From an uncultured Puniceicoccaceae bacterium (GTDB lineage Bacteria > Verrucomicrobiota > Verrucomicrobiia > Opitutales > Oceanipulchritudinaceae), in assembly GCA_963933835.1 (NCBI GenBank), contig CAWVVV010000002.1, positions 320,001-384,000 on the forward strand: a stretch of DNA of 64,000 nt, read 5' to 3'. How positions within the stretch are numbered: the first letter of the stretch is position 1; the number at the start of each line of letters is the position of its first letter. A program made the position numbers. Of this stretch, positions 53,001 to 59,000 are shown one piece after another.

Positions 53001-56000
53001 GCCGTTTGGGCCAACTGAAGAAAACCGCTTCGATCGGTGATGAGATCGTTATTCACATCCGTGATGCGAGCCCTGACGCCCAGATCAAGAAGGGTAGTGT
53101 TGTTCGCGCCGTTGTCGTGCGCACTCGCGCTCCTGTTCGTCGTGCAGACGGCAGTTACCTGCGTTTTGATAGCAACGCAGTCGTCATCATCAACCCCGAC
53201 GGCCAACCGCGCGGAACTCGTATCTACGGACCGATCGCTCGCGAAGTTCGTCAAAAGAAATTCATGAAGATTGTGAGCTTGGCTCCGGAGGTGTTGTAAA
53301 GATGAAGAATAGGATCAAAGCAGGCGACGAAGTCGTCGTTATCGCAGGAAATGACAAAGGCTCACGAGGCAGTGTTCTCAGCGTCATTCCTTCCAAGAAC
53401 CGTGTCCTCGTAGAAAACGTGAACAAGCGCAAGCATCACGAAAAAGCGAAGAGCGAAAACGAGCCGGGTGGCATCACTGAACGTGAGAACCCGATTCATA
53501 TTTCCAATGTCATGCTCGCGAGCCGCTACGACGAAAAAGTCGGCTCGAAGCAAAAGACTTCCTAATTTTCAAGGAGACTGAGATCATGCCCGTCCCTGTA
53601 TTAAAAAAACATTACCAAGACGCCATCGTTGCCGAGATGAAGAAACTTCACGGCTACGAAAACATCCACGTCGTTCCACAGCTCGAGAAAATCGTGGTGA
53701 ACAGCGGTTTCGATGCTGACATCGATAAGAAGGAGATCATCACGACTCAAAAAGAGATCAGTGCGATCACCGGACAGAACACTGTTATCACTAAAGCGCG
53801 TAAGAGTGTATCGAACTTTAAGCTACGTGAAGGCATGCCAGTCGGCACGATGGTCACGCTCCGTGGTGCTGCGATGTATGAATTTCTCTACCGCCTCATT
53901 GCGGTTGCACTTCCAGGCATCCGTGACTTCCGCGGTGTGCAGGAAAAATTAGATGGCAGTGGTAACTACAACCTCGGTATCGCCGATCACACTATTTTCG
54001 CTGAGATAAACTCAGATGGCAGCAAACGCACCATCGGAATGGATATCAGCTTCGTAACGTCTGCCAAGACAGATGCTGAGGGTCGTGACCTTCTTCGTCT
54101 TTTTGGTATGCCTTTCCGCAAGAAACAAACCAGCACGGCAACCGCCGCCTGAGGAATCACCTCTTAACACACTTTTGCTATGGCCAAAAAGGCAATGATC
54201 GAACGGGACAAGAAGCGCGCACGGACTATTGAAAAGTTCGCTGCAAAACGCGCTGAACTGAAGCGCATAATGGCGGATCCTAAAACGACCGACGACGAGT
54301 TCTATGCAGCGATGCACAAACTCGCTAAACTCCCTCGTGACTCCAGCCCTGTGCGTTTGCGTAACCGCTGTAGCATCACTGGCCGCCCTCGTGCCTTCAT
54401 CCGCAAATACGGCGTTAGCCGGATTACCTTCCGCGAACTTGCCTCCCAAGGTAAGCTTCCTGGTGTAACCAAGTCTTCCTGGTAATCCACCGCGACGAAA
54501 CTTCTGCAAAGGAACATATTATATGTCTGACAGCATCAGCGACTTCCTGACCATCATCCGAAATGCCTACGGGGCAAACAAGGACACGTGCTCAGCGAAA
54601 TACTCAAAGATCCACCGCGCGATCGCCCAAATCCTGAAGGATGAGGGTTACCTCAAATCCGTCGACGATGGCGAGGACAGCAACGGGCACAAGTGCCTCG
54701 TCCTCAGCCTGAAGTATGTCGACGACACCCCGGCACTCTTGGGCATCAAGCGAGTTAGCCGTCCAGGTCGCCGTCTCTATTTTCAGTCCACCGAAATCCC
54801 CCGAACATTGGGTGGATTGGGTGTGGGCATTCTTACCACCTCCCGTGGTGTCTTGGGTGATCGCGATGCCCGTCAACAAAACGTCGGCGGCGAGCTCATC
54901 TGCTCTGTCTGGTAATCGACCTATAAGTTCTGGAGATCCCCCCCATGAGTCGTATTGGAAAACTTCCTGTATCCATCCCTGACAAAGTTAAAGTCGCGGT
55001 CGATGGATCATCCATCAAAGTCGAGGGCCCGAAGGGCAAACTCGAGCAATCCTTCAACCCAACCGTCATCACGCTGAAGCAAGAAAACGGCGCTGTTGTC
55101 GTTGAGCCTGTCGGTAACAGCCGTCATGCGAAAGCGATGTATGGCACTGCGCGTTCACTTATCAACGGAATGGTTGTGGGTGTAACGACGGGCTTCATGA
55201 AGCAGCTTGAAATCAACGGTGTTGGTTTTCGTGCCACCATTCAGGGCAAGAACGTTAAGCTCGAGCTCGGCTATTCGCACGATATCATCCACCCGATTCC
55301 TGCAGGCGTTACCGTCACGATGGATGGCCAGACAAAGATGAAAGTCGAAGGTGCCGACAAGCAGAAGGTCGGACAGTTTGCAGCTCACGTTAAGAGCTTC
55401 TACCCAGTTGAGCCTTACAAGGGCAAGGGTGTCACGATTGTTGGTGATTACGTTCGCCGCAAGGAAGGTAAGAAGAGCGGATAATCGCCTCGCGGCCTGA
55501 CTCACTCCAAGGAGACATACGATGAATTTACAACATAAGAAAATGCTCCGCCAGAAGCGTATCTGGCGCATCCGCAAAAAGGTTTCCGGCACCGCTGAGT
55601 GCCCGCGTCTTTGCGTGACTTTCTCAAACAAGCACATCTACGCTCAAGCTATCGATGACGAAGCGGGTCGCACTCTTGTGTCGATTGCTTCGACTGAGAA
55701 GGCTGTTCGTGAGCAGTCCTTGCGTGCGAATGTTGGCGGTGCTACTGAACTCGGTAAGCAACTCGGCGAAAAAGCTAAGACTGCTGGTATCGAATCAGTC
55801 GTTTTCGACCGTCACGGTCGGCGCTATCATGGCCGCGTCCGTGAGTTCGCCAACGCCGTTCGCGCTGCAGGAATCAAATTCTAATACACCCGTCGTATGA
55901 CTGAAGAAAACAAAGACTCTCCGGAAGAAATTTCAGCTCCATCTACTCCACCTGTAGCCCCTAGCCTGAACCCTGAACAGGGTTCCGACATCATCGGTGC

Positions 56001-59000
56001 TGCAGCAGAGAAAGAAAAGCGCGGTAGCGCTGTTCTTGGAATGGTCGAGCCATCGGCTGCATCGAGAGAGCAAGACTCACGTCGTGGCGGTGGCGGTCGC
56101 GGTCGCGGCGGTCGTGGTGGCCCAGGTCGCGGTGGCCCAGGTCGCGGTGGCCCAGGTCGTGGTGGCCCAGGCGGCGGTCGTGGTCGCGGTGGCCCAGGTG
56201 GTCGTGGTCGTGGACGTCGTGGTCAGCAACGCCCTCAAGAAGAGGATAGCGGACTGATCGAGAAGGTCGTCAACATCAACCGTTGCGCTAAGGTTGTCGC
56301 TGGTGGACGTCGTTTCAGCTTTTCTGCACTCGTCGTCGTAGGCGATGGCGAAGGTAATGTCGGTGTTGGCTACGGTAAAGCAAAGGAAGTACCTGAATGC
56401 ATTCGCAAGGGAACTGAAAAGGCCAAGGCAAACATGAAGCCGATCAATCGCCGCAACAATACCATCCCACACCCCGTTATCGGTGAACATGATGGTGGGC
56501 GCGTGATGCTCCGCCCTGCAACTCCCGGAACCGGTGTCATTGCTGGTGGTGGTGTGCGTGCGGTGCTCGAAGCAGCTGGGATTAAGGACGTGCTGACGAA
56601 GAGTCTCCGTTCAAACAACCCCCTTGCGACCGTTAATGCTACGCTCGATGCTCTCAAACAGCTCCGTTCTAAAGAACAAATCTACGCGCTTCGTCGCGGC
56701 TAATATTTCCTCGGGAGTCATTCCCGTCTCACTAAAACTTCAATACTTTTTCAGTCATGCGACTCCACAATTTACCTAAGAGCGGCGGTTTTAAAAAGCG
56801 CAAGCGTATCGGCCGCGGTGAAGGCGGCGGCCGTGGTAAGACCTCTGGCCGTGGACACAAAGGTCAGCGTTCACGTTCCGGCTTCAGTCAACGTCCAGGT
56901 TTCGAGTCTGGTCACATCCCACTTTACCGTAAGCTGCCAAAGCGCGGTTTCAGCAACTTCCAGTTCCGCGTTGATTTTGACGTTGTGAACTTGGGTGACC
57001 TCGATCGCCTCGAAGTTGATATAGTGGATCGCGCTACGCTCATTGAGGCCGGACTTCTTCGCTCCAGCTCTAAGCTGTTCAAGATTCTCGGTACCGGTGA
57101 AATTAGCCGGAAGGTAACCATTTCCGCCCACAAGTTTTCTGCTTCTGCCAAAACTAAGATTGAAGCTGCTGGTGGAGAAGTTCTTCTCCTCAGCGCCCCA
57201 GTCGAAGAAAAAGAGGAAGAGGCCGAAGGCGAAGCTTAATCGAGAACGTCTTTCGTGACGTTTTTTTTCGATCCCGCACTAGCAGACGCTAGCCCATTGA
57301 ACTGTTGTCCGACCCGCTCGCCCGATGATCTCAGCTTTCTTCAATAGTTTTAAAATCCCTGAATTGCGGGACAAAATTTTTATCACCCTCTTTCTCCTCT
57401 TTATTGCGAGAATGGGTGCTAACATCCCGCTCCCAGGCCTAGATCCGTCGCCGCTTCAGGATTACTTTAAGGCTCAGAGTGAATCCGGGCAGGGAGGAAT
57501 GCTTTCTCTCTATAACATGTTTACTGGGGGAGCGCTTGCTCAAGGAGCTTTGTTCACCCTCGGCATCATGCCGTACATCAGTGCGTCGATTATTTTTCAG
57601 CTCCTCGGTGCCGCTGTTCCGAGCCTCGCTCGTCTACAGCAAGAGGGCGAAACCGGCCGCCAAAAGATTGCTCAGTACACCCGCTATGCAACCGTCGTCA
57701 TTTGCTTGATCCAAGCGAGCTTGATGGTCGGATCTATGCTCAACCCGGGTAAGGTTTTCCAAGGTTACTCAGTTGAGAACTACGGAGCGATCGTGATCAC
57801 CGATCCGATGTGGTTTAGCATTACAGCGGTCATTTTCCTTACGGGTGGAACGGTCCTGCTCATGTGGATCGGCGAGCAAATCACCAGTCGCGGAATTGGT
57901 AATGGTATTTCGCTTCTCATTACGATCGGTATTTTGTCCGATCTACCGGGAGCACTCAGTCTAACTTACGGACTCTTCCAACGTCCGGATGCAGCGACGG
58001 ACCCGATCCTTCGATGGGAGATGGGAATCGTCATGCTCGCCTTCCTTGTCCTTGTCGTGGCAGGGGTCGTCATGATCGTGCAAGCGGTTCGACGCATCCC
58101 GGTACAGCACGCAAAGCGTGTCGTCGGGCGCAAAGTCTTTGGCGGTCAGAGCAGTTTCCTGCCTCTCAAGGTCAACTACTCCGGGGTTATGCCGATCATC
58201 TTTGGTTCGGCGATTCTGATGTTTTTCGTCACGATCTTCCCCCCCCTCGGTAACCTCCTTGGTAACGAAAACTGGTTTGGTCGCGCCGTGATCGCATTTG
58301 GTAACTTGTTTAACCCAGGTGCGTGGACCTACTACCTCTTCTTTGGAACACTCATTTTCGGATTCAGCTACGTCTGGGTATCGATGATGTTCAAGCCGAC
58401 GCAGATTGCTGACGACTTGAAGAAAAACGGCGGCTATGTCCCCGGTGTTCGCCCAGGGGAACCGACCGCGAAGTATCTCGATTTTATTATGACCCGGCTG
58501 ACTTTTGCCGGTGCCATCTTCCTCGTCTTTATCGCTATCTTGCCGAACATGGTGAGCGGTGCCCTTGGCATCCCTTACAAGGCAGCACAGTTTTTCGGCG
58601 GCACCGGTTTGTTGATTATCGTCGGTGTGTTGCTCGATCTCCTTCGCCAGATTGAGACGTATCTCCTGCAGCGGCACTACGATGGTTTCCTCAAGAAGGG
58701 GCGCATCCGTGGTAAGAGTGTTGGTCGCACGCGTAATTTGGTTGATACAACGGGTATTTCCGAAACGAAGCCTGCTTGGCGCTGGCTCGCCCTCATGTTT
58801 GTCTCCGGACTCGTGGCATGGGTGATTACCACGTTCGATCTCGTCGGTTAGGAGTGTCCTGCCTGGACGCTTCTATTCTGCAAAGAGCAAGGAGTTCGAA
58901 TGATCCCGATAAAAACGGAGAGCGAGCTCACTCAAATGCGGGCCGCCGGTAAAATTGCCGCCAACGTTCTCGCCAAACTCAAGAAGCTCGTTGAGCCGGG

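Follow-up and report, generated by a model that had tools for sequence, protein, structure and literature searches.

The uS5 gene in this stretch of DNA encodes a long N-terminal extension rich in RGG-type motifs, which raises the questions of whether the extension is made, what it may do and whether it belongs to a wider set of RGG-tailed RNA-machinery proteins. The window analysed here is the whole stretch of 64,000 nucleotides. ORF calling and Pfam placed the uS5 (rpsE) gene at 55897..56703 on the plus strand, with a product of 268 aa including the extension. The Pfam search returned Ribosomal_S5 (PF00333, E 5.8e-28) over the whole profile length at residues 120-184 (the dsRBD-like N-terminal domain; 56254..56448, plus strand) and Ribosomal_S5_C (PF03719, E 3.7e-28) at residues 196-266 (56482..56694, plus strand), and no Pfam match was obtained in residues 1-119. 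The whole genome contained a single PF00333 match, indicating that uS5 is single-copy. The gene order was S8-L6-L18-S5-L15-SecY, so that uS5 occupied its expected place in the spc operon, with uL18 directly 5' (55522..55884, plus strand) and uL15 directly 3' (56757..57239, plus strand; no L30 gene in between). Low-complexity tails were also observed on other ribosomal proteins of the window, namely uS11, uL17 and uL15. The NCBI records of the closest uS5 homologues carried the names Opitutales, Puniceicoccales and Oceanipulchritudo. These results identified the protein as a true uS5 from an uncultured marine verrucomicrobium, and they confirmed the 268-aa length, the RGG-rich extension and the Pfam core from residue 120 given in the initial annotation.

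The extension was composed of several distinct parts, all on the plus strand. Residues 1-30 (55897..55986) formed an acidic, Ser/Pro-rich head, which starts with MSEE, MTEE or MSD in homologues and had a net charge of -1 to -31 in 16 family genomes. Residues 31-52 (55987..56052) formed a conserved box in alignments A1 and A2, with the family consensus GDIVA..P.K..R.SAVVG.VDRP and the motif DI[IV]...SAV[IV]G.[VI]DRP. In the 66-homologue alignment, S44 and A45 were invariant and D31, I32 and V46 were at least 90% conserved, with the rest of the region variable. A profile of the head and box searched against 1.84 billion representatives yielded only 8 matches, all of them uS5 or broken uS5. The R/G tract with its (GRGGP)n repeats covered residues 61-110 (56077..56226). 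The part of the extension after the box consisted of 23% R and 42% G with a net charge of +10, and the corresponding tract had a positive net charge (+1 to +10) in each of the 16 family genomes measured. A tri-RGG region is defined by clustered RGG repeats, 0-4 residues apart, in a disordered region; residues 71-94 showed this arrangement, and disorder was predicted for them. The extension was closed by an acidic linker, QQRPQEEDS (residues 111-119, 56227..56253; consensus EEExS in A1), and an acidic EE..(S/P) stretch likewise closes the short uS5 N-termini of the sister families. The AF2 model, built from the 66-sequence alignment, assigned no secondary structure to residues 1-110 (block-mean pLDDT 42-66) and docked the box nowhere; the first strand of the S5 domain started at residue 121, and both Pfam domains lay in a confident core with pLDDT mostly >90. 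The composition of the R/G tract, together with analogy to other proteins, suggested that it may bind RNA.

The ATG of uS5 (55897) lies 12 nt past the L18 stop at 55884, and no Shine-Dalgarno-like motif was found ahead of it. This would fit an annotation artefact, in which translation really begins further downstream and no extension is made. However, two other genes of the operon, uL15 and secY, equally lacked the motif, and in this organism Shine-Dalgarno motifs were present upstream of some genes and missing at others. The reading frame contained no ATG, GTG or TTG from M49, which sits within the conserved box, to the S5 domain; thus the R/G tract must be translated. In addition, amino-acid conservation extended 5' of M49, which also argued against a downstream start. 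The first in-frame ATG occurred 0-19 codons past the upstream stop in 22 of the 24 box-bearing family loci. Two metatranscriptome runs from a single study yielded contigs identical to the window that extend from the L18 end across the uS5 ATG, head and box into the RGG tract, although contigs from RNA libraries may include DNA and are uninformative on translation of the extension. Judged from the reading frame and its conservation, the 119-residue extension is real, translated and predicted to be disordered, and we regard an artefact as extremely improbable.

The R/G tract was underlain by a 15-nt tandem repeat, GGTCGCGGTGGCCCA (56095..56199, plus strand). TRF reported 7.2 copies with 76% matches; the repeat noted in the initial annotation was present, but its copy number of 6.2 was not reproduced. 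The six-frame scan counted 23 RGG-type motifs in the uS5 frame, of which 21 were in the extension. One homologue, P0001, was identical to this uS5 at 263/263 positions save for one absent GRGGP unit, and frameshifted or truncated gene calls were found within the repeat. The extensions of the 120 closest uS5 homologues contained 0-27 RGG-type motifs, and those of the family genomes 0-22. The high-RGG genera were scattered over the tree, suggesting several independent expansions. These repeat and homologue sequences indicated that the basic tract was inflated to (GRGGP)n in this lineage by slippage of the 15-nt repeat, that its length is unstable even inside the species and that the RGG load is not conserved among relatives.

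The distribution of the extension was then compared within and outside the family. The family sample consisted of 30 loci, of which 27 were usable after three cut by a contig end were left out. The extension was at least 70 aa long in 24 of the 27, with at least 4 RGG-type motifs in 16 and at least 10 in 11. These counts were slightly lower than the 27, 21 and 15 of 30 given previously. The SAV box, which had been reported to precede the repeats, was present in 24/27, and the three-part plan (acidic head, DI(I/V)...SAV(I/V)G box, basic tract) was common to 24/27. The remaining three loci had short extensions of 20-58 aa; of these, one took a basal position on the ribosomal-protein tree and another lay on a long branch, indicating that the tail is either dispensable or a late acquisition. 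Outside the family, about 105 of the roughly 144 non-family rows (hand count, 150 listed rows) had a stop-to-stop uS5 frame of at most 210 aa. Among the 29 non-family loci read, 23 had extensions of at most 18 aa, two had R/G-rich extensions of 55-65 aa with no box, and in four the frame from the first ATG was long but lacked the box and contained 0-1 RGG-type motif. The sister families of the same order had uS5 N-termini of ~18 aa, and G005, a family member with a 20-aa N-terminus, branched at the family base on the ribosomal-protein tree; together, these observations indicated that the extension arose within the family.

To place uS5 among the other RGG-tailed proteins, the six-frame scan covered the 1.94-Mb genome, with identities confirmed by Pfam. 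The uS5 frame (23 motifs) was followed by a DEAD-box helicase (19), an RRM protein (18), Obg (7), Rho (6) and PNPase (5), and the first three counts exactly reproduced the earlier ones. The top three scorers were RNA-binding proteins, and the Obg count reflected its ordinary Gly-rich fold. The RGG tails reported for the helicase, RRM protein, Rho and PNPase were real, but Rho (a QGGGG/RGG patch within a ~290-aa N-terminal insert) and PNPase (a mixed RD/RGG C-tail) were far weaker cases. The helicase tail was RGG-rich in this genome only, with 19 motifs, whereas 27 family orthologues had 0-8 and the helicase of a same-genus genome had 1. No repeat DNA was common to the RGG-tail genes of this genome. 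RGG counts in the uS5 extension and in the best RRM match were correlated (Spearman 0.59, n=22 family genomes, p=0.004; genus means 0.90, n=12, permutation p=1e-4), as were independent contrasts computed on an L18 + S5-core + L15 tree (r=0.47, 21 contrasts, p=0.028; signs agreeing in 14/19), with the reservation that RRM orthology was uncertain, several genomes having 2-3 matches and some best matches being just 35-41% identical. Local GC did not account for this covariation. For uS5 and the helicase, the correlation was 0.26 (Spearman, n=19, p=0.28) and fell to 0.14 without this genome; contrasts on raw counts (r=0.51, p=0.026) rested largely on this genome, and after square-root transform they gave r=0.21 (p=0.39; signs agreeing in 8/17). 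These sequence comparisons suggested that the RRM tail alone covaries with uS5, modestly, and that the helicase tail does not do so robustly.

Several explanations were weighed against these results. The initial annotation had proposed that a single marine family possesses a built-in RGG network, in which co-adapted tails of uS5, the DEAD-box helicase, the RRM protein, Rho and PNPase bring ribosomes, the helicase, Rho and the machinery of RNA decay together on RNA, possibly in condensates. All five proteins of this genome do have R/G-containing disordered tracts, the uS5-RRM covariation is unexplained by local GC, and a preprint, in the part available to us, attributes phase separation to the disordered regions of bacterial RhlE helicases (bioRxiv 10.1101/2024.01.12.575364). 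However, the proposal was not borne out, with an RGG load of 0-27 among homologues, a helicase tail that is RGG-rich in this genome only and does not robustly covary with uS5, few motifs in Rho and PNPase, unshared repeat DNA and uncertain RRM orthology. Since it is a general feature of bacterial RRM proteins to carry Gly/Arg tails, and of DEAD-box helicases to carry basic ones, their co-occurrence is to be expected. We consider such a network very unlikely. Mostly neutral growth was a stronger contender: the exposed uS5 N-terminus would tolerate insertions, and slippage of GC-rich repeats would have inflated a short basic linker into harmless, functionless repeats. The tandem repeat under the tract, the one-unit difference in P0001, the variable motif number, the scattered expansions, the broken gene calls and the low-complexity tails elsewhere in the window are all consistent with this. 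On the other hand, about 50 extra residues are costly in a protein as abundant as uS5, and family members have conserved both the box and the positive net charge of the tract. Independent drift would not be expected to produce the modest RRM covariation either, but a shared bias of the lineage could. Mostly neutral growth is rather unlikely in our view.

A role before or during 30S assembly was judged somewhat less probable still. The box would then dock a dedicated assembly factor or chaperone, and the R/G tract would assist the folding of 16S rRNA as a chaperone. The box is a conserved island in a disordered region, as is usual for peptides that fold upon binding a partner, and the eukaryotic extension has the same architecture, with a short conserved motif and an RG tract in a disordered N-terminus, as far as described in the available part of PMC10216425. 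In that system, however, nuclear import is a main task, no candidate partner emerged here, and the actinobacterial N-terminal extensions sit at the mRNA entry of mature ribosomes in the published descriptions available. We know of no nuclear import step in bacteria. It is also quite improbable that the extension is a functional bacterial counterpart of the eukaryotic one, with the box recruiting a dedicated partner. We lean instead, with some reserve, towards a translated, disordered three-part extension that likely serves as an RNA-binding arm at the mRNA entry, with the box docking a partner. In solved ribosomes of other lineages, the uS5 N-terminus lies where uS3, uS4 and uS5 form the pore through which mRNA enters; thus, the tail would jut from the solvent side of the 30S subunit, beside the incoming mRNA. 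By the same analogy, placement of the tail at the entry and binding of RNA there may apply to this protein. The R/G tract would act as a flexible, non-specific RNA-binding arm that holds or helps unwind incoming mRNA or occupies the entry of idle ribosomes, and the box would dock on a neighbouring ribosomal component or a trans-acting partner. Selection would keep the box and the basic character of the tract, and the exact RGG count would largely drift; the very variable count fits weak constraint on that part.

Comparison with known uS5 proteins placed the extension in context. The best PDB matches were actinobacterial chains, and phmmer alignments entered the extensions of 8crx_E, 6dzk_E and the 5o5j group, which aligned to residues 88-119 of this uS5. 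The uS5 of Mycobacterium smegmatis, M. tuberculosis and Cutibacterium acnes (PDB 5o5j, 5v93, 8crx) likewise has, immediately N-terminal to the S5 domain, a disordered segment rich in RG. According to the available descriptions of the solved ribosomes, this segment is directed into the mRNA entry channel or plugs it, with density in the mRNA entrance for C. acnes (PMC10085706). The actinobacterial extensions are roughly 30-40 residues, as read from the alignments, versus 119 here, and they lack the acidic head and the DI[IV]...SAV[IV]G box; conversely, their proteins have a C-terminal helix that is absent from this uS5. Common descent of the two extensions was rejected, given the ~18-aa N-termini of the sister families and the basal position of G005. 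Chloroplast uS5c and mitochondrial uS5m likewise have long lineage-specific N-terminal tails, which remodel the mRNA entry site. The uS5c tail contacts uS3c, uS2c and bS1c and narrows the entry (PMC5694952), and the authors linked the organellar tails to Shine-Dalgarno-independent initiation or leaderless mRNA. These tails differ in belonging to organellar ribosomes and in being partly ordered on them, and the accessible parts of the sources describe no RGG repeats in them.

The parallel to the eukaryotic RG tract drawn in the initial annotation was upheld, since RPS2/Rps2 also has a disordered Arg/Gly-rich N-terminal extension beside a short conserved motif (PMC10216425, available part). In the sections of the sources available, that tract is methylated by PRMT3/Hmt1, the motif is bound by the chaperone PDCD2/Tsr4 and the extension acts in nuclear import (PMC10216425; PMC13627120). 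None of these partners or steps is expected for the bacterial uS5 described here, and the two extensions show no sequence homology, indicating convergence at most. The earlier claim of novelty was weakened by the RG-rich uS5 extensions already seen in the actinobacterial structures, as well as by a prokaryotic survey in which Arg-rich low-complexity regions of bacterial RNA-binding proteins were already covered (PMC6821194). The available text of this survey reports that bacterial ribosomal proteins often have low-complexity tails, that low-complexity regions of RNA-binding and RNA-processing proteins are marked by Arg enrichment and that slippage is a possible source. Its main text, as available, does not name uS5 or mention a uS5 RGG tract, and the ribosomal regions that it describes are mainly Ala/Glu/Lys-rich, whereas the tract here is R/G-rich. 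Collectively, these comparisons indicated that the extension is not a new kind of system but a longer, three-part version of the uS5 tails known in other bacteria.

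uS5 in this window carries a translated, disordered, three-part N-terminal extension, which is confined to the family Oceanipulchritudinaceae and whose R/G tract has been inflated by slippage. The 268-codon open frame (window 55897-56703, + strand) is the single uS5 gene of the genome (1.94 Mb, 97% complete). The ATG follows the uL18 stop by 12 nt, and uL15 starts 53 nt downstream of uS5. The gene order S8-L6-L18-S5-L15-SecY-Map-S13-S11-S4-RpoA-L17 is that of an ordinary spc/alpha cluster without L30, and the gap in which the L30 gene is absent (window 56704-56756) measures 53 nt. 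Pfam assigned residues 120-184 to Ribosomal_S5 and residues 196-266 to Ribosomal_S5_C, with no match in residues 1-119. According to NCBI records, the closest uS5 homologues belonged to Opitutales, Puniceicoccales and Oceanipulchritudo, all in the phylum Verrucomicrobiota.

The extension opens with an acidic, Ser/Pro-rich head (residues 1-30), followed by a conserved box (residues 31-52; family consensus GDIVA..P.K..R.SAVVG.VDRP), an R/G tract (residues 61-110; 23% Arg, 42% Gly, (GRGGP)n) and an acidic linker (residues 111-119). Across 66 homologues, S44 and A45 of the box were invariant, and D31, I32 and V46 were at least 90% conserved. The DNA under the tract is a 15-nt tandem repeat, GGTCGCGGTGGCCCA, present in 7.2 copies (window 56095-56199). 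AlphaFold2, run with a 66-sequence alignment, predicted no secondary structure before residue 121, with block-mean pLDDT values of 42-66 over residues 1-110 compared with mostly >90 in the core. In a structure-based protein-cluster search, all scores for residues 1-119 were below 0.9 with TM below 0.35; a weak match (0.79) pointed to a cluster of short proteins from actinobacteria, with PF00333 on 17% of its members, and was counted as no evidence.

To establish the start codon, we considered all in-frame starts 5' of the S5 domain, which were only M1 and M49; thus the R/G tract is unavoidable in any product with a complete S5 domain. M49 sits within a motif whose amino-acid sequence is conserved in relatives, which usually carry K, S or Q at that position; translation therefore starts at M1. 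Of the 24 family loci with the box, 22 had their first in-frame ATG 0-19 codons past the upstream stop, and the proteins started with MSEE, MTEE or MSD. Metatranscriptome contigs from two runs of one study, identical to the window, ran from the end of L18 through the ATG, head and box into the repeat, which shows presence in RNA libraries, not translation. Among six operon starts inspected, Shine-Dalgarno motifs preceded some genes and not others, a sample too small to characterise initiation across the genome. It is hardly conceivable that the true start lies downstream and that the extension is an annotation artefact that is never made.

The distribution was evaluated in 30 family uS5 loci, 27 of which were uncut by a contig end and therefore usable. 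An extension of at least 70 aa with the box was found in 24 of these 27, whereas three had only 20-58 aa. At least four RGG-type motifs were counted in 16/27 loci and at least 10 in 11/27. In a family tree from L18, S5-core and L15 sequences, one short member (genome G005) was basal and another (G030) sat on a long branch. Genera with a high RGG load were scattered over this tree, so the repeat expanded on several occasions. A further 29 uS5 loci came from the same phylum but from outside the family. The N-terminus measured at most 18 aa in 23 of them, and two carried R/G-rich extensions of 55-65 aa without the box. In the remaining four, the frame from the first ATG was long but boxless, with 0-1 RGG-type motif, and three of the four enclosed the 18-aa N-terminus of sister genera. 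A head-plus-box profile searched against 1.84 billion representatives returned eight matches, all of them uS5 or truncated or frameshifted uS5, and no occurrence outside uS5. The box is thus a clade-specific uS5 feature, and its being a module shared with other proteins was ruled out. In the cultured relative Oceanipulchritudo coccoides CK1056, uS5 is 231 aa long and includes head, box and a short basic tract.

The initial annotation had further described RGG tails on other RNA-machinery proteins and read them, together with uS5, as a network of RNA-binding or condensate-forming tails. A six-frame genome scan reproduced its motif counts, with 23 RGG-type motifs in the uS5 frame, 19 in the C-tail of a DEAD-box helicase and 18 in the C-tail of an RRM protein, and Pfam confirmed the protein identities. 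Obg followed with seven motifs, which come from its normal Gly-rich fold. Outside the window, Rho (G000:C1:47790-49964, - strand, where G000 is the genome holding the window) had six motifs inside an N-terminal insert of ~290 aa, and PNPase (G000:C1:339599-342022, + strand) had five in a mixed RD/RGG C-tail. The Rho insert, which precedes the RNA-binding domain (Pfam Rho_RNA_bind from residue 294), is Lys/Ala/Pro-rich and then has a QGGGG/RGG patch. The PNPase tail runs for ~100 aa after the S1 domain and is made up of a basic patch of the RDGDRGGDRRRGG type and then SEDSKP repeats. Another protein outside the window (G000:C6:100826-102679, + strand; ~572 aa, no Pfam match) combines an R/G/P-rich disordered N-terminal region (RGRRDRRGPGGPGGPGG...RSRGGRGAPQQGRGRGARQERPP) with a C-terminal acidic repeat of Ala, Pro and Glu. 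Using blastn, we found no repeat module shared between the uS5 repeat DNA and other genes of the genome; the best non-self match was 38 nt at 84% identity (E 0.9) within rho.

If these tails formed a co-adapted RGG or condensate network, their RGG loads might be expected to vary together. The helicase tail was basic in all 27 family orthologues, yet it held only 0-8 RGG motifs, with one in a same-genus genome. The Spearman correlation between uS5 and helicase counts was 0.26 (n=19, p=0.28), or 0.14 without this genome. Independent contrasts on raw counts gave r=0.51 (p=0.026), resting largely on this genome, and dropped to r=0.21 after square-root transform (p=0.39; signs agreed in 8/17). The RRM protein, which carries a Gly/Arg tail in nearly all family genomes, behaved differently: its best match correlated with uS5 at Spearman 0.59 (n=22, p=0.004), genus means at 0.90 (n=12, permutation p=1e-4), and independent contrasts, on a tree from three small proteins, at r=0.47 (21 contrasts, p=0.028; signs agreed in 14/19) or 0.44 (p=0.04) after square-root transform. 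RRM orthology is uncertain, as several genomes had 2-3 matches and some best matches were just 35-41% identical. In one family genome, the RRM match (locus L116, G010:C67, 1501-1740) lies in a 375-aa open frame whose downstream part is unlike a Gly/Arg tail; a fusion or an overlooked stop codon may account for this. RGG load did not follow GC content (Spearman -0.05 in uS5 and 0.16 in RRM), and local GC failed to account for the uS5-RRM covariation. That covariation is real but modest, and the same result would be expected if lineages shared a bias that favours RGG in basic, disordered segments. The network is very unlikely, since the uS5-helicase signal is not robust and the helicase tail is RGG-poor in orthologues. 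In summary, the RGG-rich uS5 tail and the genome-wide motif counts of the initial annotation stood, and its interpretation held only in part, the network being unsupported.

We then compared conserved and variable properties of the extension. The net charge of the post-box tract was +1 to +10 in 16/16 family genomes measured, and that of the head ranged from -1 to -31. The number of RGG motifs ranged from 0 to 27 in the 120 nearest homologues, one GRGGP unit was missing from a protein otherwise identical over all 263 residues, and broken gene calls inside the repeat were common. These results indicated constraint on the box and on the basic charge, and a labile RGG copy number. Several public calls of family uS5 (L011 of genome G015, P0125 and P0123) shift frame or are cut short within the repeat, with AVVVPVVVAVV as one out-of-frame product, which suggests assembly or slippage errors. 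No repeat-length variants were seen in four read runs, the data being contigs, which lose rare variants.

Collectively, we consider it moderately likely that the extension lies beside the mRNA entry pore, with an RNA-binding basic tract and a docking box. It would project from the uS5 N-terminus adjoining the pore; the tract would bind incoming mRNA or nearby 16S rRNA non-specifically, the box would dock on a neighbouring ribosomal component or a trans factor, and the acidic head may offset the basic tract. The labile copy number, with its one-unit difference, speaks for the RGG part being largely neutral repeat growth, an explanation that is unlikely in itself and compatible with an arm at the entry pore. 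A role in assembly or chaperoning appears quite improbable. Relatives with 0 to 27 RGG motifs, some tailless, offer a natural series for probing such a putative RNA-binding arm.

Lineage-specific tails on ribosomal proteins are a well-known phenomenon, so the scope of the finding is limited, with the network unsupported and the function putative. In the window, uL17 (62590-63120, +, 176 aa) has a ~50-aa C-terminal tail, Lys-rich and then Ala/Glu/Val-rich, and uL15 (56757-57239, +) ends in an acidic tail; several ribosomal proteins of this organism thus have low-complexity ends. An acidic, Ala/Glu-rich N-terminal extension of ~55-60 aa, with opening residues similar to the uS5 head, was observed on uS11 (60237-60782, +, 181 aa; Pfam S11 domain from residue 71).

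The literature searched held no description of this verrucomicrobial uS5 extension. The family extension is a new, longer, three-part form of the known lineage-specific, often RG-rich uS5 N-terminal extension. The best solved-structure matches were actinobacterial uS5 chains of 213-220 aa, whose N-terminal extensions are also RG-rich and align to residues 88-119; the family extension is about three times as long. The M. smegmatis extension enters the mRNA entry channel made by uS3, uS4 and uS5 (PMC6133939), density in the mRNA entrance of C. acnes was assigned to the uS5 extension of that species (PMC10085706), and the chloroplast uS5c N-tail extends to uS3c, uS2c and bS1c, with the entry narrowed (PMC5694952). 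A survey covers prokaryotic ribosomal proteins with low-complexity tails and RNA-binding proteins whose low-complexity regions are rich in Arg (PMC6821194), and IDRs of bacterial RhlE helicases are reported to undergo phase separation (bioRxiv 10.1101/2024.01.12.575364). In eukaryotes, the uS5 N-terminal extension is described as RG-rich and methylated, with a short chaperone-binding motif (PMC10216425). In both family and eukaryotic uS5, the disordered tail combines an RG tract with a short conserved motif, a eukaryote-like layout at which bacteria independently arrived.
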